The position numbers and the translations under genes are program-made. A model generated the notes under the pieces. The model was given only the letters and a program-made list of their open reading frames with translations. It was not told the origin of the DNA and ran no database searches. DNA of 64,000 bases from Escherichia phage F13. Numbering within the stretch: position 1 is the first letter of the stretch; each line of letters starts with the position of its first letter. Where the stretch lies: sequence record OP745617; one strand, given 5' to 3'. Positions 4,089-59,713 of the stretch are shown piece by piece.

Positions 4089-4116
4089 ATTATAATATAG
4101 TGTAGAAAAAAGTAAA
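4089..4116 (-). promoter_or_regulatory. sigma70-like promoter (TTTACT-N16-TATAAT) of the conserved early cassette, minus strand
   Basis: Reverse complement of 4021-4128 is nearly identical to the plus-strand cassettes at 4548-4655 and 4851-4957. Confidence 0.5.
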
Positions 4117-4160: not shown

Positions 4161-4188
4161 TTTACTTCTTCGTACACTCGCGTATACT
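4161..4188 (+). promoter_or_regulatory. sigma70-like promoter (TTTACT-N16-TATACT), diverged copy of the early cassette, divergent to the minus promoter
   Basis: CTTTACTTCTTCGTACACT shared with the other cassettes; followed by a GGGC…GCCC hairpin and a GGGAG RBS. Confidence 0.45.
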
Positions 4189-7640: not shown

Positions 7641-7721
7641 AATACACCTCACTTGTTAACGTATAATGAGTATAACTTAATAGCGCATAAAGTAAAGGCG
7701 CTTTTCAGCGCCTTGAGTGAA

Positions 7722-10449: not shown

Positions 10450-10607
10450 TGATAATTATTTTACGCGAAAGAATAGGCGCGTGCCACACAGCGAGTCCCA
10501 ACGGCCTTCACCATCCCATACCGACCCAACGCCAGCGGTGATGACACCAGCAGAATTGGCGGCATTGGCCCAGGCGAGTCGTTTCAGCTTCCAACTACAC
10601 CAACGAT

Positions 10608-10841
10608 TCACAGTTCATCTCCAGATTGCAGAACAAGTCCCGCATAGAGGATTGCCAAGGCCAAAGGTGCACCACCACCAGCCTCTCTATTCTCTTTGAT
10701 TTGAAGAGTATCCTTAAGGAATTGCAGCTGAACGTTGAATTCACTTTCAATTCCAAGCACTCTAGCCAATTCTTTTACAGAATCTGCATATGCCTTGTCT
10801 AGCACTTCTTTTGGTACTGTTAAGGTTAATTCATTTGCCAT
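10608..10841 (-). CDS. hypothetical protein (77 aa from ATG 10841)
   Basis: Start chosen at MANELTL…; part of the minus-strand operon. Confidence 0.45.
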   Translation of the reverse strand: MANELTLTVPKEVLDKAYADSVKELARVLGIESEFNVQLQFLKDTLQIKENREAGGGAPLALAILYAGLVLQSGDEL

Positions 10842-11052
10842 TTTCTTTCCACTCCACAAATGTGTTGCCGCTTGTTTCTCTGTTTAGCAGGTATCTGCCG
10901 CGCATCCCATGAAGGCTGAACTCAACCGTCGATGGATTAGATTTTGAAAGCCATATAGGCTGCCCGTCGAATGGACCGCCTACGCATGTATATTTCGCTT
11001 TTGGCTCACTCCTTTTGGGCCGTTTTGCCCGCTCTTTGATTGATAGTCTCAT
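10831..11052 (-). CDS. hypothetical protein (73 aa, basic N-terminus)
   Basis: AAGGTG RBS; overlaps neighbours by a few nt. Confidence 0.4.
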   Translation of the reverse strand: MRLSIKERAKRPKRSEPKAKYTCVGGPFDGQPIWLSKSNPSTVEFSLHGMRGRYLLNRETSGNTFVEWKENGK

Positions 11053-11267
11053 CAGTCTTCACCTTGAGATTCCAGACAAGTAAGGACAAGCCAAGTCATC
11101 GGAAGAATCAAAACCAGAGAAATGAGGGACCAGATAGACCAGCACAGGATGACAGACTTGAATGTGTGAACGTCGCCAAACGCAGCAGTAAAACAGAATC
11201 CCATTACAAATGCAATAGCGGTGGAATGGTTGTCTATGGCTTTGATGGCACGGTCGATGAGTTTCAT
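11052..11267 (-). CDS. small membrane protein (71 aa, two predicted TM helices)
   Basis: GGAGG RBS; hydrophobic segments AIAFVMGFCFTAAF and ILCWSIWSLISLVLILPMTWLVL; first gene of the minus operon. Confidence 0.45.
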   Translation of the reverse strand: MKLIDRAIKAIDNHSTAIAFVMGFCFTAAFGDVHTFKSVILCWSIWSLISLVLILPMTWLVLTCLESQGED

Positions 11268-11349
11268 ATTACCTCCGGTTTTGAGTTAATATGATTATAA
11301 CGCAGAGTCTCAGAAAGGCAAACTTTTTGTGAATTTTAATCAAAAAAAA

Positions 11350-17892: not shown

Positions 17893-18030
17893 ATGCAAAA
17901 GATTATTCAGTCACGTTATGTTAAAGTGCGAAATATTAATTGCAACTCTTTGCTTTCTTGGAAATGGGCTGTTTATGACTCGATGTTGATTGGCGTTTTA
18001 GTGGCAGGAGTGCTATTTAATATTCACTGA
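17893..18030 (+). CDS. small membrane protein (45 aa), below the ORF-track size cutoff
   Basis: Strong AGAGGAAG RBS 5 nt before ATG 17893; MQKIIQSRYVKVRNINCNSLLSWKWAVYDSMLIGVLVAGVLFNIH with one hydrophobic helix. Confidence 0.35.
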   Translation: MQKIIQSRYVKVRNINCNSLLSWKWAVYDSMLIGVLVAGVLFNIH

Positions 18031-18054
18031 ATTCATCGGCAAAGGATTGCCGCG

Positions 18055-18345
18055 AGTTTTATACGTATAATGACGTATCATCCGTATCAAGTAAGTTGTT
18101 GTTTTCAAAAGAATCTTACGGATGATACGGATGATACGCGTTGCCGCCGTACTATATAGGAATTCAAATAAATTAATTTAAAATTATATATCTAATTTAA
18201 TTTTATTTTTTTATAAACTCTTATATATATGAAAAGTATCCGTATCATCCGTATCATCCGTAGCACACCAGTGATAGCGCGGCTTATACACCGATACGGA
18301 TAAAAATACGCCTCATTTTATCCGTATCATCCGTATCACACTAAT
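18055..18345. repeat. Composite element B: AT-rich core (about 18153-18236) flanked by inverted repeats TACGGATGATACGGATGATACG (18117-18139) and CGTATCATCCGTATCATCCGTA (18241-18262), extra copies at 18072-18091 and 18316-18340
   Basis: Read directly; homologous to element A. Confidence 0.8.
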
Positions 18346-18395
18346 AAAGGCGCGGCTATATCGGTTGTTATACATATTCAAACCATAATTATTGT

Positions 18396-18424
18396 TTGCC
18401 TAAGTTTTTTTCATTAGATATAAT
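18396..18424 (+). promoter_or_regulatory. sigma70-like promoter TTGCCT-N17-TATAAT upstream of the scaffold/capsid genes
   Basis: Located between element B and ATG 18454. Confidence 0.4.
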
Positions 18425-18453
18425 ACACAATACTTATTTGAGGGTGGATGCGA

Positions 18454-37565: not shown

Positions 37566-39350
37566 ATGCCAACACTTATTAACAGACCTTTCGCGCAAAG
37601 CGGTGATGTATCCGTGGTGCCGGATGCAAGTCCAAGCGGTTATGTGAACTTCCAGCGCGGCTACACCCCTGACTATGCACTTGCGCTGGAAGCCGGAAAC
37701 GTCGCCGCGAAAGCAGTTGAACGTGAGTCGATGAACTGGTTGCTGAATCTGATCACCGACAACCTTATGTTCATCCAGGACCACGGCGCTCAACAGTATT
37801 TCTCGTCTGACTTGAAGCCAGATGGATACCCGAAAAATGCCATCGTTGTCAGCAACTCTGGCACCCCTTCAGCGCCTGAATGGCGCATTTTCCAGAGTGT
37901 GGTAGACGGCAACACCAGCGCAGTCCCAGCTAACGGCGAAACGGAATCTTGGCAGGAATTGACGCTGCCTAGCGAAGCGAGAAAATATATTCCTATGCCT
38001 GCTGGCGGCGATGCGCAAAACCCGTATTTTGTTCGCGGACTGATTTCAAACTTTGTGGACTTTGATAATATCACGACTTCCACAACTATTGTCATTCAAT
38101 CTGATGCCGTTGCCGCTCTCTGCTCTAACATCCCGAACGCGGTTGGTGCGACGAAGGTTGCAGGTCGTCTCCAGGTTTGCGCTTGGCAGGTTGATGCGCA
38201 GACTTTCGCCCTGCAACAATACACGTCAATGAACGGATATGTTTTCACCCGCTCTTATACTTCTGGTGCTTGGAGTGCTTGGATTCAAAATGCAACTGTT
38301 CAAGACGTGCAAATCGGCACGCCGAATCTTGCATCAGGTAAAGGCGCACAAGATATAATCCTTACCGTTCCGGCAGGTTATGCATGGCCGCCGTCAGCAG
38401 GTAGTCGCCTGACAATTGTCAATGATGTAACGACTACCGGACCTGTTACCGTGACCATTGGTGCAAACAAAGTTGCAGTCCTTGGATTCGACGGCGGCGA
38501 GCTGCCAGCAGGGTCCATCGTCGGTCTTCTTCCTTTTACTATTATTTATGACGGCACCGTTTGGCGTCTTCTTCAAGCATTCGGCGCGGCGCAAATCGGT
38601 GTCGATGCTAGTGAGCCGCAACAGTTTGTTACAAAGCGCCAACTCGATGCTTTGGCTGCGAAATTGATAACTATGGGTGATGTATTCGAAGTCGGTGAGA
38701 CTCGATTCTTGACTAATGGCACTAACCCAAATACTAAACTGGGCGCTTATGGACAGGTTTGGACCAGATTGCCTGACAACATGGTCATCAGGACATCTGG
38801 CACAGCAAGAAACGGCCTTGCCACTGGCGGCGCGGACTCTGTTACTCTTACCGCCGCCATGCTTCCTCTGCACAATCACAGCGTGAACATAACTACGCGA
38901 CAGAGCGGTCCATGGTCCAATACCACTGGAGGCGCAGGCAACCATAACCACACAGGCGATACCAGTCAAAACGGCGCTCACGTGCACGGAATGGATGCTG
39001 CTGGTAATCATCATCACGACAGTGGCTGGGGTGAGGCTTATGCAGACCAGGCTAGATACGGGGTGTATGATGGCACGCACAATAACCTTGGAAGTGCAAG
39101 GTCTGATTATGACAACTACAAATACAACACCTCGACTAACGGTAGCCACGTCCACAATATTCAATCTTCTGGGTCACACACCCATGGGTTGAATATAAAT
39201 TTCGCTGGCAATCACAGCCATAGCTATACCCTTCCCGCTCACACTCACGATGTGGTCGGTAACACTGGCAATGCAGGGCAGTCCGTCCCAACGGCTGTTT
39301 CAACTCTGCCGCGATATGTCGTCTTGAACGGCTGGTACAGAAGCGCATAA
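37566..39350 (+). CDS. tail fibre protein with histidine-rich HxH repeat region
   Basis: GAGGAA RBS, ATG 37566; C-terminal HNHSVN…NHNHTGD…AHVHGMDAAGNHHHD…SHVHNIQSSGSHTHGLNINFAGNHSHSYTLPAHTHDV. Confidence 0.65.
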   Translation: MPTLINRPFAQSGDVSVVPDASPSGYVNFQRGYTPDYALALEAGNVAAKAVERESMNWLLNLITDNLMFIQDHGAQQYFSSDLKPDGYPKNAIVVSNSGTPSAPEWRIFQSVVDGNTSAVPANGETESWQELTLPSEARKYIPMPAGGDAQNPYFVRGLISNFVDFDNITTSTTIVIQSDAVAALCSNIPNAVGATKVAGRLQVCAWQVDAQTFALQQYTSMNGYVFTRSYTSGAWSAWIQNATVQDVQIGTPNLASGKGAQDIILTVPAGYAWPPSAGSRLTIVNDVTTTGPVTVTIGANKVAVLGFDGGELPAGSIVGLLPFTIIYDGTVWRLLQAFGAAQIGVDASEPQQFVTKRQLDALAAKLITMGDVFEVGETRFLTNGTNPNTKLGAYGQVWTRLPDNMVIRTSGTARNGLATGGADSVTLTAAMLPLHNHSVNITTRQSGPWSNTTGGAGNHNHTGDTSQNGAHVHGMDAAGNHHHDSGWGEAYADQARYGVYDGTHNNLGSARSDYDNYKYNTSTNGSHVHNIQSSGSHTHGLNINFAGNHSHSYTLPAHTHDVVGNTGNAGQSVPTAVSTLPRYVVLNGWYRSA

Positions 39351-39358
39351 GGTGATTT

Positions 39359-40003
39359 ATGATTAATGCAAACGTAATATCTAAAGGGACCGGATGCAGC
39401 ATGGATGTTGCTGAAAAATGGGTCGACCCCTTCAAGCAGGCTTGTGAGCACTACGGAATCAAAAGCAAGAATGCCATCGCGGCGTTGCTTGCAAACGTAG
39501 GAGTAGAAACAGGCAGTATGAAGACTTTTGTGGAGAACTTGAATTACTCCGCTCAAGGTCTTGCGAATACATGGCCTAGCCGTTACAGCGCCAGCGGTCG
39601 TTTCGGTGGCGCACCAAACTCCTTGGCATTGTCTATTGCCCGTAAACCAATGGAAATCGCCAATAATACATATGCAAACCGAATGGGCAATGGTTCGGTA
39701 GCATCTGGCGACGGTTGGAAGTACCGTGGCCGTGGTGCCATTCAGCTGACTGGAAAGGCTAACTATGCAGAGTATTCAAAGCAATCAGGGTATGATGCAT
39801 TGAATAACCCTGACATTTTGACTGAGCCGAAACACATCGCTGACAGCGCGGCATGGTTCTTCAAGAACAGCGGTTGCATCCCACTTGCTGATGCTGGCGC
39901 ATTTGATTCGACTGTGAAGCGGATTAACGGGGCCGCGCCGAATACGGCTAACCATGGAGATTTGCGACGGAAGCGTTACAAGGATGCACTAGCAGTTATG
40001 TAA
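39359..40003 (+). CDS. endolysin, glycoside hydrolase family 19 (chitinase-like)
   Basis: AAGGTGA RBS; GVETGSMKTF and YRGRGAIQLTGKANYAEY match GH19 catalytic-region signatures. Confidence 0.8.
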   Translation: MINANVISKGTGCSMDVAEKWVDPFKQACEHYGIKSKNAIAALLANVGVETGSMKTFVENLNYSAQGLANTWPSRYSASGRFGGAPNSLALSIARKPMEIANNTYANRMGNGSVASGDGWKYRGRGAIQLTGKANYAEYSKQSGYDALNNPDILTEPKHIADSAAWFFKNSGCIPLADAGAFDSTVKRINGAAPNTANHGDLRRKRYKDALAVM

Positions 40004-40006
40004 GAA

Positions 40007-40026
40007 AAAGGCCCATATGGGCCTTT
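40007..40026. terminator. Bidirectional intrinsic terminator (AAAGGCCCATATGGGCCTTT followed by GTTTATTTT)
   Basis: Perfect palindromic GC stem with flanking A/T runs between convergent endolysin and minus-strand genes. Confidence 0.7.
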
Positions 40027-40028
40027 GT

Positions 40029-40259
40029 TTATTTTACGGCTTCAACCTGGACGGGCGGCGCGGAACTTGTATCAATGTCTGGCAAGTCGAAGTAATACCC
40101 CGCCATGCCAATCACGCCAACAATCGCGGCCCGTGCCACCTTGTTGCTGATTGACTCCCCAATAAGCTTTACCAACAGGGACAAGATTTGAGACGTCAAA
40201 GCCTTTTTCAGCCTTTTGTTTTCTTCCAAATCTTTCTGCATAACTACCACCCATGTCAA
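40029..40259 (-). CDS. small protein with one hydrophobic helix (76 aa)
   Basis: ATGA coupling to upstream gene; AAIVGVIGMAGYYF hydrophobic segment. Confidence 0.4.
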   Translation of the reverse strand: MTWVVVMQKDLEENKRLKKALTSQILSLLVKLIGESISNKVARAAIVGVIGMAGYYFDLPDIDTSSAPPVQVEAVK

Positions 40260-40798
40260 CGCACTTCCTGTGTCTTAACATTACCTGAAGCATCTCTTAA
40301 GGGCAGTGGATAGTAGGCCATTTGGTAGTCTGATACGCCTTCAACATGATAAAACACGATTACGTCTTTGCTGTTGATGAGCATGTTAACGACATCTGAT
40401 TTATCTTCTGGAGTGAGTATGAGTGCGCCGCCTGTCCTGCTGTCTACTGCAACAGGGTATGTCTTATCGACAAGGCCGCTGTCCAATGTATTATACCTGA
40501 CAACGATTTCAGGGGCATCAACTTTTGCAATTGACATTCCGAACACAAACGACACGACTTGGCGACCGCGATCATTCATTACGCACATCTTTTCCTTATC
40601 AAACCTTTCCTTTATCACATCATATTTGTTCCAACAAAATTCGAACGATTGGCCGTTGTTAAAATATCTCGTTAATACTTTTGCATTGCTGTTTGGCGGC
40701 GTAAACATACTTTCAGCCGCTGCACTTTTGGTGAAGAACAAAACTGTCAGCATAGCCATGATGATGATCAAAACAATCTTTAAGTTTTTCGATTTCAT
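40256..40798 (-). CDS. secreted protein of unknown function (180 aa, signal peptide)
   Basis: AAGGTG RBS; MKSKNLKIVLIIIMAMLTVLFFTKSAAAE signal-peptide-like N-terminus. Confidence 0.5.
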   Translation of the reverse strand: MKSKNLKIVLIIIMAMLTVLFFTKSAAAESMFTPPNSNAKVLTRYFNNGQSFEFCWNKYDVIKERFDKEKMCVMNDRGRQVVSFVFGMSIAKVDAPEIVVRYNTLDSGLVDKTYPVAVDSRTGGALILTPEDKSDVVNMLINSKDVIVFYHVEGVSDYQMAYYPLPLRDASGNVKTQEVR

Positions 40799-40974
40799 TA
40801 TAATTCACCTTTTGATTACGAATATTAATAGTATAGGCCGAAGGTTTTGAAAGTAAATAAGGCGAAAGGTAAATAAAAGAAAAGCCGGAGATTTCCGGCT
40901 TTATGTATACACTGTATATTAAATTCTATAAAACGACGAGATAGATTATCCGCACCAATTATTTATCTAGTGTC

Positions 40975-41952
40975 TTAGAAATACTCCATATCGGTAATAT
41001 CACGGAAGCATTTATACAAAGCAGAGCGCGGCACGTCAACGATGCCAAAGTTAAAGAATTTATACGTAAGGTATTTATCGCGATAGTTTTCGCGATTCTC
41101 CCAAAGCATTTTACGCTCTGCCATAGGCATTGAACCAGCGGAGACGCGGAAAGGAATCATTTCACCTTTCTCATCCACATATTTTGGATTGACGACTACG
41201 AATGAGCCAAGGTATCCTTTCGCAACTAAACCTTCAGCCTCTTTTGAACGCTTGGTGCGACCCAATTCGTCAATGAATGCTTCGTTGTTGTTCTCCATCA
41301 TCTCAACGAAGTCTATGATCAATCCTTCTTCATCGGTCCACGGCTTGTCCTTCCACACATCACGTGACTTCGGCGTCGCGCGGCCATGCTTGTATTTGCC
41401 CGTCCAAGACTTGCCATACAAGCCTTCATATCCAAGCTGGTCCGCTTCGATTTGCATCGCCGCGTACTGTTCCATATTTTCGATGTTTCGATATTCGAGA
41501 GCGCGAAGGAATGGGCGTCGACCATGGTTGATGAGATGTTGATTAACTTCAGCAACTCTAGCTCGATAGTTCGCATAACGCTTTTCAAAAGGCAAATCAG
41601 GGTCGCTGAAGTCATCAAACACCCACCATGTAAAGTTAGTGATTGCATCAGTATTCATGCACGCAGTATAGGCCTGTTGCATGACGTTCTTGTCATTTGG
41701 ATTGCCGTCGATTAGCTCTCCATCAAGTCCGTGAATTAGTTCACCCAAAAAGAGGAATTCTTTTTTGATTTGAACGTTTCTCAGCGCCATGCCGGACGTG
41801 CCCATTGGCAAGTTGTCATACGCCATTGCGCGTATTCCATCGACCTTGAATGACAATCCGCAAGGCAGCGGCACGTCTTCGCCGCGCTCGATTATTTGCT
41901 TACGCTGGCAACCCTTCATTGGTTTTAATGCTTTGATTTCTCCTGCCATCAC
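40975..41952 (-). CDS. ATP-dependent DNA ligase (T7-like)
   Basis: Motif I KVDGIR at the expected N-terminal position; YEGLYGKSWTGKYKHGRATPKSRDVWKDK resembles T7 ligase EGLIVKDP…YKRGKKSGWWKMK. Confidence 0.7.
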   Translation of the reverse strand: MMAGEIKALKPMKGCQRKQIIERGEDVPLPCGLSFKVDGIRAMAYDNLPMGTSGMALRNVQIKKEFLFLGELIHGLDGELIDGNPNDKNVMQQAYTACMNTDAITNFTWWVFDDFSDPDLPFEKRYANYRARVAEVNQHLINHGRRPFLRALEYRNIENMEQYAAMQIEADQLGYEGLYGKSWTGKYKHGRATPKSRDVWKDKPWTDEEGLIIDFVEMMENNNEAFIDELGRTKRSKEAEGLVAKGYLGSFVVVNPKYVDEKGEMIPFRVSAGSMPMAERKMLWENRENYRDKYLTYKFFNFGIVDVPRSALYKCFRDITDMEYF

Positions 41953-42542
41953 TCAAACTCCTTATTCATCACTTGTTCCAGCGCATAGGCGTAAGCCTGA
42001 TCAGTAGATTTGATGAACGTTCCGTTGTACATGACACCTTTGCGGTCCTTGATGTCTTCGTAGGCCGCTTGCGCACAGTCGGATAAGCGAAGGCCATAAT
42101 CATGAGCTACGCCGGAAAGGTAATCGACTGCGGCCATGATGGTGACGTCAATATCCATGGTCTGATTCTTAGCAATAGCATCACCAAGCCGTCCAAGGGT
42201 CTTTGCCAGGCGAAGGATGAATGAATGAGGGTGAGCGCCTTTATCAGCACAACCGCCGCCATTAATGTTTTCGATTTCAGTACCGTTTTGCGCCGCCAGG
42301 ATGGTCAACACAACAAGACAATCGCCAATGTCGTCCTTGATTGCAGCTTGCAAGTCACAGATGGCCTGCTCTGTATATCCAATTTCAGGGTCGAAGAACA
42401 CAAGGTCATGGAGTTGATCAACGTGGTCGGTTAACTCCCCAAACTCGCTGATAAGCTTCGGGTATTGGTCCTTAAGGTCGCAACCTTGGATGATGTTACG
42501 GTCAGAAGCCCACTGGCGAATGTTTGCATAAATCTGTTTCAT
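41949..42542 (-). CDS. all-alpha nucleotide pyrophosphohydrolase (MazG/dimeric dUTPase-like), tentative
   Basis: ISEFGELTDHVDQ and AIKDDIGDCLVVLTILA resemble MazG-type segments; weak, memory-based. Confidence 0.35.
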   Translation of the reverse strand: MKQIYANIRQWASDRNIIQGCDLKDQYPKLISEFGELTDHVDQLHDLVFFDPEIGYTEQAICDLQAAIKDDIGDCLVVLTILAAQNGTEIENINGGGCADKGAHPHSFILRLAKTLGRLGDAIAKNQTMDIDVTIMAAVDYLSGVAHDYGLRLSDCAQAAYEDIKDRKGVMYNGTFIKSTDQAYAYALEQVMNKEFE

Positions 42543-43058
42543 TTATTTTTCCTTTGATGCATTGAATTGATCGATTTTTATTTTAGCCTGATTATAAGTA
42601 TCAATCAAGCTATTAACTTTCTCTTTTAATCGATTTGTTTCTGCGGCGAACTGAACAAGAAATCTGACATCCTCTTCTGATAGTCCACAGTTTCCTTCTG
42701 GGATAGAGAGGCGTCCAGTGGTCGCAGAGTCGGGCACACTCCTGAGTAACTCACGGGAGCAGCTGAGTTGCTCGCGCAACTTGACATTCCCAGACTTGTA
42801 ACGAGCAATAGTGTCATCAGCAACCAGTTGCGCTTCCTGGCGACCCTTCTCATATGCCGATGCCGATTCAACCTGTAAAGTTGCAATTTGCTCTTCGAGT
42901 GCATTTATCTTGTCCTTACGCTCATTAAGCGATGTCAGATATTGATTATCCTTGGCCAGTGATGCGTTGGTTTGCTGCAGGTCTTCAACGTATGATCCAG
43001 CGGCAAACGCGCCAACAAGGGCCAGAATCTTCAGGAGCGGTACAATTCTTTCTATCAT
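42543..43058 (-). CDS. i-spanin (Rz-like)
   Basis: N-terminal TM helix (LLKILALVGAFAAGSYV) then coiled-coil; C-terminal half resembles lambda Rz (…GNVKLREQLSCSRELLRSV…RLSIPEGNCGLSEEDVRFL…). Confidence 0.55.
   Translation of the reverse strand: MIERIVPLLKILALVGAFAAGSYVEDLQQTNASLAKDNQYLTSLNERKDKINALEEQIATLQVESASAYEKGRQEAQLVADDTIARYKSGNVKLREQLSCSRELLRSVPDSATTGRLSIPEGNCGLSEEDVRFLVQFAAETNRLKEKVNSLIDTYNQAKIKIDQFNASKEK
42626..42853 (-). CDS. embedded o-spanin (Rz1-like lipoprotein) in alternate frame of the i-spanin gene
   Basis: Out-of-frame ORF inside the Rz-like gene: MRRVARKRNWLLMTLLLVTSLGMSSC… (signal peptide, lipobox-like Cys, Pro-rich mature part); start could also be 42817. Confidence 0.4.
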   Translation of the reverse strand: MRRVARKRNWLLMTLLLVTSLGMSSCASNSAAPVSYSGVCPTLRPLDASLSQKETVDYQKRMSDFLFSSPQKQID

Positions 43059-43115
43059 GATGCACCAGATAAATAAAAGGCCGCCAATCGGCAGCCTTGT
43101 TGATTTGATTGTCGA

Positions 43116-43976
43116 TTAAAACTCTTCTGCGTCGGTCGGAGTTTCATTGACAGGGCCAGCGGCACCGCTTGCTTCTTCCTGCTTGCTGCGGTCAATGTTA
43201 ACGTTGCCGCCAACTACGTCGTTGTGGAATGCCTTGGCGACTTCGTACAGACCTTTGTCCTGCACCAGACCTTCCAGCTCAAACTTCAGAACTGACCATG
43301 TATTGCCGTCTTTGGACTGGGATGCAGTGCCCATGCGAACGATGTTCATAAAGGTCGGCGGCGTTTTCAGACCCTGCGGAGTCTGAACTTTCTTCTGCTG
43401 CAGAGCTGTCATCAGCATGCGAGACGGCTTGATCATGGAAGAAGTCAGAGACAGCATTGCGCTACCAAATTCACCAGTTTCTTCGTTCAACAGAATTACG
43501 AAGTGGTTACGTGTATCTGCGTAGTAAGGCGATTTCTTCTCGTGCACCTTGCCGTTTTCGTCCGGCACAAACACTTTACCGTTGATCTCAACAGCGCGCC
43601 CTGCCGCGACTTCTGCATCAACGTGCTCTTTGGTGAATTCACCTTTAAAGCCTTTATCGTCGGACTCGCGACCGCCCCAAAGGATGAAGGTGCGTTTGAA
43701 TGCACAAGGGATGATCTGCACGCCTTTCTTGCCGTCATACAACTCACCAGTGACGGTGTTGTAAAGCATGCCAGCTTTTGCGCCAGGAACGTGTTTCGGA
43801 TCATCTTCGTCGACCATAGGTGACATCTTCTGCAGGACGACGATAAAAGGAATGGCATACGCATCGGCATCGGCACCTTCAAAACCAGCGCCAAAATCGG
43901 TCATGTCGACAAAATCGGCCATAGCGGACATCTGGGTGTTTTTCACTGCAACTTCGGTGGTTTCTTTCTTAGACAT
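43116..43976 (-). CDS. putative ssDNA-binding/recombination protein
   Basis: 286 aa ending in an acidic tail with terminal Phe (…NETPTDAEEF), as in T7 gp2.5 and bacterial SSB; no further motif. Confidence 0.35.
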   Translation of the reverse strand: MSKKETTEVAVKNTQMSAMADFVDMTDFGAGFEGADADAYAIPFIVVLQKMSPMVDEDDPKHVPGAKAGMLYNTVTGELYDGKKGVQIIPCAFKRTFILWGGRESDDKGFKGEFTKEHVDAEVAAGRAVEINGKVFVPDENGKVHEKKSPYYADTRNHFVILLNEETGEFGSAMLSLTSSMIKPSRMLMTALQQKKVQTPQGLKTPPTFMNIVRMGTASQSKDGNTWSVLKFELEGLVQDKGLYEVAKAFHNDVVGGNVNIDRSKQEEASGAAGPVNETPTDAEEF

Positions 43977-44035: not shown

Positions 44036-44593
44036 TTACTTTTTGCTTTTAGGCAAGGTTATTTTAGCTTCTTTGTATTCAAAAACGCTAATATCTTCAC
44101 TAACTGGATTGCCTGCTTCCAGCTGTTCTTTTACAAATGACTTCAGTGTAGCAGAATGAACGCCTTGTTTCAATGTGGCTTCAACGCCATCTTCACGCAG
44201 CGCGGCAACAATCTCTTGCGCCTGTTCGATTTCTTCGCGACCGAACTCAGCCGTGACGCTGGACTTGATCAAGCCGCCGTAACCGTTGTTGACAAGCCAA
44301 TCGAAAACTTTTAATTCGTTTTCTTTCTTGATTGAAGCATTCACCTTGGACTCGACCTTGATTTTGGTCTTGTCCTCAAGCTTGATTTCAGACACACCAA
44401 GCTCATCCATTACGCCAGGAAGCAAAACAGTTTTGATTTCACTGATGCGCTGCTTTTGCATATCAGCTTCATCTTCAAGCTCTGTCAAAGCTTCTTGACG
44501 TTCTGCAAGTTCAGATACTAAGCGCGCAAGGCGCTCTTGAATGCTCTCAGGAGCGACCTGCGGCAAATCATCTTCCCAATTAATATTGCTCAT
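44036..44593 (-). CDS. hypothetical replication/recombination-associated protein (185 aa, coiled-coil N-terminus)
   Basis: ORF in the replication module. Confidence 0.4.
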   Translation of the reverse strand: MSNINWEDDLPQVAPESIQERLARLVSELAERQEALTELEDEADMQKQRISEIKTVLLPGVMDELGVSEIKLEDKTKIKVESKVNASIKKENELKVFDWLVNNGYGGLIKSSVTAEFGREEIEQAQEIVAALREDGVEATLKQGVHSATLKSFVKEQLEAGNPVSEDISVFEYKEAKITLPKSKK

Positions 44594-57687: not shown

Positions 57688-57715
57688 TTGACTTTGTATC
57701 ACTCAATATTATACT
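57688..57715 (+). promoter_or_regulatory. sigma70-like promoter TTGACT-N16-TATACT for the plus-strand primase operon
   Basis: Hexamers in the 160-bp divergent intergenic region. Confidence 0.4.
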
Positions 57716-59608: not shown

Positions 59609-59713
59609 ATGAAAGCCGTAAAGAAATACACATTAATCATTTCCCTTGTCATCATCCTGGGGCTATTATATGTATTGGATATGGCATATTATTTGGCAGG
59701 GGTGAGTGGATGA
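59609..59713 (+). CDS. possible membrane peptide (34 aa)
   Basis: MKAVKKYTLIISLVIILGLLYVLDMAYYLAGVSG; weak RBS; stop overlaps next start. Confidence 0.25.
   Translation: MKAVKKYTLIISLVIILGLLYVLDMAYYLAGVSG

Follow-up and report, generated by a model that had tools for sequence, protein, structure and literature searches.

Dispersed lysis genes in Escherichia phage F13: a GH19 endolysin, a spanin pair at the position of a putative holin, and candidates for the holin itself

Escherichia phage F13 (sequence record OP745617, of which the 64,000 nucleotides analysed here are called the window) keeps its lysis genes apart from one another. A GH19 endolysin gene closes the structural operon, and an Rz/Rz1-type spanin pair is encoded on the other strand, among the replication genes. 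Comparison with PB1-like phages demonstrated that the spanin pair occupies the genome position at which several of these relatives encode a 201-aa putative holin; a predicted lysis gene has been exchanged for another at a fixed position, which is a new observation. The endolysin, the spanin pair and their dispersed arrangement are features already annotated or catalogued in the genus, and they make up an ordinary lysis system. On balance we favour standard three-step Gram-negative lysis, with the genes distributed among three or more transcription units and with a 71-aa two-helix protein (here denoted C1) as the likeliest holin. The coordinates of all features are collected in Table 1.

Positions 39000-43300 of the window are 100% identical in nucleotide sequence to Escherichia phage vB_EcoM_SP13 (OP352608, Wifcevirus), and 27 further records, including WFC, WFH, ECML-117, FEC19, vB_Eco4M-7, Mansfield and Bas98-101, are 92-97% identical over the same interval. 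These Wifcevirus relatives are myoviruses of roughly 68 kb, described as PB1-like. ECML-117, Mansfield, vB_Eco4M-7 and Bas98-101 carry the same lysis genes at 92-100% nucleotide identity, with no difference of substance. Among Serratia matches, the listed record (MTx) is trivial, spanning only 41 bp inside the ligase gene. We further used two metagenomic relatives, L021 (a 72.5-kb Logan contig from SRR26188688) and L022, and a divergent lineage, L017, against which residue-preserving and residue-changing differences were counted. All open reading frames (ORFs) named in an initial annotation of the window were found in place.

Endolysin and spanin genes

The initial annotation had recognised a GH19 endolysin, and family and structure searches bear this out. 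The product matches Pfam PF00182 Glyco_hydro_19 with 31.2 bits (cut-off 25.5) and phrog_181 'endolysin' with E 1.9e-69; the nearest solved structure is PDB 8p8e (E 2e-72), and the SPN1S endolysin 4ok7 is matched with E 4e-27. The protein carries a Glu-x8-Glu pair, E50-x8-E59 (GVETGSMKTFVEN), and the block that contains both residues, GVETGSMKTFVENLNY, aligns to GVESGGLVSLVENLNY of 8p8e; E50 and E59 are taken to be the catalytic pair typical of GH19 endolysins. Membrane helices were sought in 19-residue windows by two tests, a Kyte-Doolittle (KD) value >= 1.6 and a Wimley-White octanol energy <0. The N-terminus of the endolysin (MINANVISKGTGCSMDVAEKW) is polar and holds no hydrophobic segment, the KD maximum over 19 residues being 1.10, at residue 40. 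The absence of such a segment rules out a signal-anchored (SAR) endolysin, and an enzyme with neither a hydrophobic N-terminus nor an export signal should be cytoplasmic and dependent on a hole-forming holin. We therefore class the protein as a soluble, muramidase-type GH19 endolysin, predicted to degrade peptidoglycan.

The gene follows the tail-fibre gene and is the final one on the + strand ahead of the strand switch, so that the structural operon does end here, as had been proposed. The bidirectional terminator that had been noted behind it is perfectly palindromic (AAAGGCCCATATGGGCCTTT), and both strands carry T-runs. On the + strand a T-run follows the hairpin, whose 8-bp stem includes 5 GC pairs; the reverse complement gives the same hairpin and then TTCTT. 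In Mansfield, terminators are annotated at this site on both strands, in WFC on one.

An Rz/Rz1-like pair had been placed 2.5 kb away on the opposite strand, and this too is confirmed. The i-spanin matches phrog_1327 'Rz-like spanin' with E 1.9e-26, and hydrophobicity scales put its membrane helix at residues 5-23. Measured from the endolysin stop, the 3' end of the gene lies ~2.5 kb and its start ~3.05 kb away. Pfam PF03245 (Phage_lysis) was not matched by the protein of the window, and the L022 orthologue reached E 0.0021, under the cut-off. The nearest proteins outside the genus are Rz of Yersinia phage PY54 (tblastn E 6e-13) and the i-spanin of Burkholderia phage Mica (E 9e-7); the PY54 gene belongs to a holin-endolysin-Rz cassette. 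The base composition of the spanin genes gives no clear sign of a foreign origin.

The embedded out-of-frame lipoprotein ORF, the proposed o-spanin, is supported by several features. The longest ORF (42626-42904) encodes 92 aa, and translation probably begins at the ATG at 42853. The N-terminus, MRRVARKRNWLLMTLLLVTSLGMSS|C, satisfies a PROSITE-type lipobox rule applied by script. In nine Wifcevirus genomes the frame is intact, the signal reads MRRVARKRNWLLMTLLLVTSLG(M/I)SS|C, Cys26 and Cys40 of the o-spanin are conserved, and C40 as well as C99 and C123 of the i-spanin are invariant. L021 and L022 retain an embedded +1 lipoprotein although their i-spanins are only 62-65% identical to that of the window; their o-spanins (53-62% identity) have the lipoboxes LAISSC and LAISGC and keep the motif GVCPTLPPL, and the cysteines recur in matching contexts, LQC and GNCGL in the i-spanin and GVCPTL in the o-spanin. 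Substitutions in the overlap cluster at the first codon position of Rz, equivalent to the third of Rz1, and several of them alter Rz and not Rz1. A comparable lipoprotein signal arose by chance in 1.8% of 5000 synonymous recodings of the Rz gene. The o-spanin also has a weak match to phrog_4306 (E 0.0039). Together, these sequence comparisons indicate that the two genes are an Rz/Rz1-type spanin pair and that the embedded gene is real.

The pair resembles lambda Rz/Rz1 in its N-terminal helix, its periplasmic coiled coil, the lipoprotein gene inside the +1 frame and the periplasmic cysteines in both subunits. Unlike the lambda genes, it lies between replication genes behind a terminator and not in a holin-endolysin-Rz cassette, and the o-spanin, with a mature part of 49 aa, is longer and less proline-rich than lambda Rz1. 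In the dispersal of endolysin, holin and spanin genes, with the spanins away from the endolysin, the arrangement is like that of T4 (e, t, pseT.3/pseT.2; PMC6139136). T4 differs in having separate, non-embedded spanin genes and a known holin, T, with antiholins; no T-like protein was found in the window phage.

The spanins of this genus have been described before. The spanin census of Kongari et al. 2018 places the ECML-117 pair among the embedded two-component spanins, as a singleton family, and its supplement, which holds sequences and coordinates, gives an o-spanin of 75 aa and an i-spanin with one predicted coiled coil. In GenBank, the i-spanin and the o-spanin are annotated in Mansfield and Bas98-101, and RefSeq records carry an 'Rz-like spanin'; the SP13 record labels the spanin 'hypothetical protein' and leaves the o-spanin unannotated. 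A synthetic-phage study of vB_Eco4M-7 named gp69, which is 100% identical to the i-spanin of the window, the 'lysis system i-spanin'; a C-terminal tag on this protein gave 0 plaques, and a tag on the endolysin was tolerated. The loss of plaques could instead be a polar effect, since the MazG start codon comes directly after the i-spanin stop codon; as evidence for a spanin function the result is indirect.

A strong terminator hairpin (9-bp stem, 6 GC pairs, tail TTATTTAT) precedes the i-spanin gene and is annotated in WFC, WFH and Mansfield. It ends so close to the start codon that transcription of the spanin, MazG and ligase genes seems to require either read-through or a promoter that lies upstream of this hairpin. 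In the lysis scheme that we favour, the soluble endolysin would be expressed from the last gene of the tail operon and would accumulate in the cytoplasm late in infection, and the spanin pair would be made from the replication-gene operon by read-through of this terminator. Following the established spanin model, the spanins would reach across the periplasm without acting before the wall is degraded. The inner membrane would be opened by a holin, the endolysin would then degrade the wall, and the freed spanins would disrupt the outer membrane. Gene identities and sequence signals are the demonstrated part of this scheme; timing and function are deduced from the behaviour of the respective families.

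Rz/Rz1 in place of a 201-aa protein

From the helicase gene to the endolysin gene, Pbunavirus 14-1, Pantoea phage Kyle (Kylevirus), Serratia phage MTx (Myosmarvirus), Wifcevirus, L021 and L022 share one gene order: helicase, a gp33-like gene, a Pam3-gp34-like gene, a variable gene, MazG, ligase, a gene for a secreted protein of 170-180 aa (absent in 14-1), an ORF47-like gene and the convergent endolysin gene. At the variable position 14-1, Kyle and MTx encode the 201-aa protein, and Wifcevirus, L021 and L022 encode Rz/Rz1. The window thus agrees with Pbunavirus (PB1, 14-1) in an orthologous endolysin (52% identity), in the helicase-to-endolysin synteny and in the convergent ORF47-like neighbour; unlike Pbunavirus, it has Rz/Rz1 for the 201-aa protein and an extra 180-aa secreted protein, and homologues of the 201-aa protein, the u-spanin gp07 and the multi-helix protein gp09 are absent both from the window and from the complete Bas98 genome. 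A tblastn search of both with 14-1 ORF50, Kyle_63, MTx gp064 and 14-1 gp07 yielded no match below E 0.8. The endolysin, too, is replaced in L021: a lambda-R-type lytic transglycosylase (10803-11291 of the contig, - strand; PDB 1am7, E 1.6e-36) stands in place of the GH19 enzyme, between unchanged neighbouring genes.

The N-terminus of the 201-aa protein is hydrophobic and rich in Gly; ~60 further residues appear coiled-coil by eye, and there are two C-terminal helices. A published prediction terms it the probable holin of PB1-like phages, and its best family match is GTA_holin_3TM with E 0.014, below the cut-off. If it is the PB1-like holin, the Wifcevirus holin must come from elsewhere. That its holin status derives from the published prediction and the sub-cut-off Pfam match only is a weakness of the scheme that we favour. 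The exchange could alternatively be like for like, with the 201-aa protein as a factor that disrupts the envelope or outer membrane and with the holin as a gene common to all these phages. Rz/Rz1 lies exactly at the position of the 201-aa protein, the authors of the MTx announcement identified no holin and no spanin, the layout of the protein (Gly-rich N-terminus, coiled-coil-like stretch, two-helix anchor) is unlike that of compact class I holins, and no holin model is matched above cut-off. However, Pbunavirus already has a u-spanin, gp07, whose AWAC lipobox was tested by transplant into T1 gp11, and both the weak GTA_holin_3TM match and the published prediction favour a holin. In the sole experiment, PA1-LVP fused to endolysin had no effect (PMC11538084), which is a poor test, and the equation of LVP with the 201-aa protein is only inferred. 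We regard a like-for-like replacement as quite improbable; this judgement concerns the role of the 201-aa protein and overlaps with the probabilities that we give to the individual holin candidates below.

The more plausible course, in our opinion, is that in the Wifcevirus lineage the 201-aa putative holin was replaced by Rz/Rz1 and the u-spanin was lost, so that a different holin would be needed. The finding of a spanin pair in place of a putative holin at one position is small but useful: such a fixed-position exchange of lysis functions amounts to a natural experiment, and it bears on the role of the 201-aa 'holin' in therapeutic Pbunavirus phages.

Two genes that precede the variable position in the shared order were also identified in the window. 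The neighbour of the i-spanin gene (43116-43976, - strand), which the initial annotation had called similar to a single-stranded-DNA-binding protein, is not recognisable as such and encodes a Pam3 gp34-like protein (PF23977, E 4e-86); next to it lies a gene for a Pam3 gp33-like protein (DUF7307; 44036-44593, - strand). Some Pbunavirus records label the gp33-like homologue 'u-spanin', a label that the sequence does not support. We rejected 14-1 ORF52 and JJ01 ORF85 as u-spanins: they have no membrane helix or lipobox and are Pam3-gp33-like, and the u-spanin of the census is gp07.

Candidates for the holin

Wifceviruses such as ECML-117, vB_Eco4M-7 and Bas98-101 serve as model phages and are applied to combat E. 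coli O157 or to detect it, and the comparison narrows the search for their holin, the lysis timer, to a few genes. Candidates were drawn from the hydrophobic small proteins of the window, from the other 4.4 kb of the genome and from the small annotated genes of Bas98, and holin families were searched in Pfam, PHROGs and NCBIfam. In agreement with the initial annotation, no canonical holin is evident. The whole-genome records of the relatives Bas98 and Mansfield annotate none, the 4.4 kb outside the window encode no membrane protein, and no candidate matched a holin family with E <0.1, the best hit being phrog_6384 'holin' with E 0.15 for a 70-aa protein encoded beside the endolysin. The membrane-helix tests were passed by C1 (two segments), by a 113-aa protein denoted C2 (two segments) and by a 45-aa peptide (one segment). 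The initial list of candidates was a sensible one: it contained the two that rank highest here, C1 and the ORF at 40029-40259, and missed the two-helix protein C2. The 70-aa protein encoded at 40029-40259, which the list gives as a membrane ORF, fails both hydrophobicity tests.

C1 is the best candidate by architecture. A weak first helix rich in Gly, Ala, Ser and Thr (Wimley-White window at residues 18-36, -3.2) is followed by a 7-residue loop and a strong second helix (residues 43-61, -15.7), and the KD value over 19 residues is 2.32. A GGAGG ribosome-binding site and a sigma70-like promoter, TTGCCT-16-TATAAT, lie upstream of the gene, and the tail-fibre gene of the same operon is well expressed. 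Compared with L017, C1 shows 76% amino acid identity, with 26 residue-preserving and 31 residue-changing differences. It is a real coding gene under purifying selection. C1 is, moreover, confined to a genus without the 201-aa protein.

Several points weigh against C1. No holin family in the three databases matches it, its C-terminal tail is six residues long (ESQGED) and acidic, not basic, and the gene lies ~28 kb from that of the endolysin, in a phage group whose lysis genes are in any case scattered. The helix pattern is pinholin-like, and pinholins normally serve SAR endolysins, not soluble ones. Annotators at the Center for Phage Technology, working with TMHMM, called no holin in Mansfield. 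Matches to C1 were limited to 28 Wifcevirus records and 2 protein clusters, L021 and L022 not being covered, and the search for distant homologues in IMG/VR and JGI metagenomes returned only near-identical loci. We accordingly name C1 as the most likely holin in a tentative way, its chance being distinctly below even. That the holin is something else, or that the phage has no dedicated holin, is a possibility to which we give a smaller share, about a quarter of the whole in our estimation.

C2 has two strong hydrophobic segments, with Wimley-White windows of -9.4 and -12.3, and a basic C-terminal tail, KPNNGSHRHIPLKRN. No homologue outside Wifcevirus was found among 1.84 billion representative proteins, and the differences from L017 are 37 residue-preserving and 4 residue-changing ones. 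Like C1, it is encoded ~28 kb from the endolysin. C2 could be a secondary holin or an antiholin and a partner of C1, or could have a function linked to the tail fibre. Because neither C1 nor C2 has distant homologues beside lysis genes, guilt by association is impossible for both.

The holin might also be sought in C2 alone, in the 45-aa peptide or in one of the early peptides of 31-34 aa, such as that at 59609-59713. The two hydrophobic segments, the basic tail, the restriction to the genus and the strong purifying selection are in favour of C2, and the 45-aa peptide belongs to a late operon and has a Pbunavirus counterpart at the same position, 14-1 gp21 (46 aa), with no detectable sequence similarity. 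However, the first segment of C2 resembles a cleavable signal peptide (AKA|ET), its topology would be unusual for a holin, and its location directly upstream of the tail-fibre gene suggests a fibre-linked or exclusion role. The 31-34-aa peptides lie in early regions, and none of these candidates matches a holin family. Peptides of 31-45 aa are also shorter than known holins generally are. A holin among these proteins appears doubtful, and C1 remains our first choice over them.

Another protein, Bas98_0047 (71 aa, N-terminal membrane helix), was rejected as a holin: SP13 keeps only a 28-aa remnant of it, at 50923-51009 (- strand), and the adjacent 55-aa gene is apparently missing too. Given that SP13 lacks both genes in intact form, both are likely dispensable.

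The 70-aa protein belongs to phrog_5165 (E 1.9e-8) and is homologous to Kyle_58 (42% identity, E 3e-15) and 14-1 ORF47 (38%). Its gene is convergent with the endolysin gene, 25 nt apart, and the position is kept in Kyle, 14-1, MTx, L021 and L022. A word-indexed search with the protein returned the near-identical cluster alone; with a four-sequence alignment, a scan for loci of the family found known phages alone, and a six-sequence alignment was too divergent for such a scan. Upstream, the 180-aa gene encodes a protein with a hydrophobic N-terminal segment at residues 5-23 followed by AAA|ES. Its homologues are Kyle_59 (36% identity), MTx gp059 and proteins of L021 and L022; it has no match in Pfam, PHROGs or NCBIfam, and its AlphaFold model (pLDDT 44.6) is too poor for use. 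The terminator after the ligase gene and the sigma70-like promoter next to it indicate that the 180-aa and 70-aa genes are a separate transcription unit, and this unit is bounded by strong terminators. Allowing at most one mismatch, the window has 5 copies of the promoter sequence TTTACT-N16-TATACT where 0.16 are expected; most of them lie in early regions or at the heads of small-gene operons.

A role of the 70-aa protein in lysis is suggested by PA1-LRP of Pantoea phage PA1, for which Kyle gp058 (Kyle_58) was named the closest relative (PMC11538084). The link to the window runs through this Kyle protein, encoded beside an endolysin of the same type. PA1-LRP alone slowed growth and raised beta-galactosidase leakage, and its co-expression with endolysin increased killing (PMC11538084). 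Could the 70-aa protein itself be the holin, or a holin-like permeabiliser, perhaps in all PB1-like phages and with the 180-aa protein as its regulator? The family adjoins the endolysin in Pbunavirus (289 records), Myosmarvirus, Kylevirus, Wifcevirus and L021/L022, and it does so even in L021, where the lambda-R-type enzyme replaces GH19. In this small protein a basic N-terminus is combined with two helices and with a hydrophilic tail that is acidic and contains proline, and a gene common to all lineages would explain how the phages survived the loss of the 201-aa gene.

These points are offset by others. No 19-residue window of the 70-aa protein passes KD 1.6 or a Wimley-White octanol energy <0 in the window, 14-1 and L021 versions, and the Kyle and MTx versions are of marginal hydrophobicity. 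The PA1-LRP effects are slow, taking hours, and were obtained with pET over-expression or with fusions; a direct interaction with endolysin was not detected, and holin-type hole formation was not demonstrated (PMC11538084). The region is syntenic throughout, so that the adjacency to the endolysin was inherited along with it and amounts to a single observation. The unit has its own early-type sigma70-like promoter, and the 14-1 homologue, gp48, is a monocistronic, 'moron-like' unit (TU021) by ONT-cappable-seq (PMC10914365). Three of the five lineages also have a better holin candidate in the 201-aa protein. As the holin, the 70-aa protein is therefore unlikely, in about the same measure as C2 and the short peptides; more likely it is an accessory membrane-active factor rather than a holin, and a lysis accessory factor or a non-canonical holin are both possible descriptions of it.

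A bolder proposal would make the whole ORF47/PA1-LRP family (phrog_5165) an unrecognised lysis effector that has at most a marginal helix and gates the release of endolysin across the PB1-like group. We give it little credence, somewhat less than the narrower version above and slightly more than like-for-like replacement; if true, the 201-aa 'holin' of PB1-like phages would have another envelope role, one replaceable by Rz/Rz1 in Wifcevirus.

Table 1. Lysis-related genes, holin candidates and transcription signals (positions in the window)
Feature	Position	Strand	Remarks
GH19 endolysin, soluble, 214 aa	39359-40003	+	last gene of tail/structural operon
Palindromic hairpin, two-way terminator	40007-40026	.	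between endolysin gene and convergent 70-aa gene
70-aa protein, ORF47/PA1-LRP family (phrog_5165)	40029-40241	-	tail-to-tail with endolysin gene
180-aa secreted or signal-anchored beta-rich protein	40256-40798	-	co-transcribed with 70-aa gene
Terminator after ligase gene and sigma70-like promoter	40830-40902	-	terminator 40902-40881; promoter TTTACT-N16-TATACT 40857-40830
i-spanin (Rz-like), 171 aa	42543-43058	-	N-terminal membrane helix, periplasmic coiled coil, Cys99, Cys123
o-spanin (Rz1-like) lipoprotein, 75 aa	42626-42853	-	wholly in +1 frame of i-spanin gene
Strong terminator hairpin	43077-43098	-	ends 18 nt ahead of i-spanin start codon
C1, holin candidate, 71 aa	11052-11267	-	two membrane helices; first gene of leftward operon ending in tail-fibre gene
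C2, candidate, 113 aa	10070-10411	-	first segment a helix or signal peptide; 2 Cys in periplasmic part of 55 aa; C-terminal helix; basic tail
45-aa tail-anchored membrane peptide	17893-18030	+	head-gene operon; weak holin candidate
TTTACT-N16-TATACT sites	4089-4116(-), 4161-4188(+), 7669-7696(-), 40830-40857(-), 57688-57715(+)		

Other features of the window

The leftward module that includes the genes of C1 and C2 (7722-11267, - strand) comprises genes for proteins of 71, 73, 77, 51 and 113 aa and a tail-fibre gene, and is wholly absent from Pbunavirus 14-1. In the L017 lineage the 73-aa gene is missing and the other four small genes are kept; the L017-lineage homologue of the tail-fibre gene has a Peptidase_S74 domain. 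The 51-aa ORF (10456-10611, - strand), located between the 77-aa and 113-aa genes, has a GTG start and is rich in Trp and Arg. With 15 residue-preserving and 2 residue-changing differences from the divergent lineage, it is a real gene under tight constraint.

The 417 intergenic bp that separate the 45-aa ORF from the prohead protease gene (18031-18447) hold at least 10 copies of a 9-bp unit, ATCCGTATC. The copies occur in both orientations around an AT-rich core, in a manner resembling iterons or a protein-binding array.

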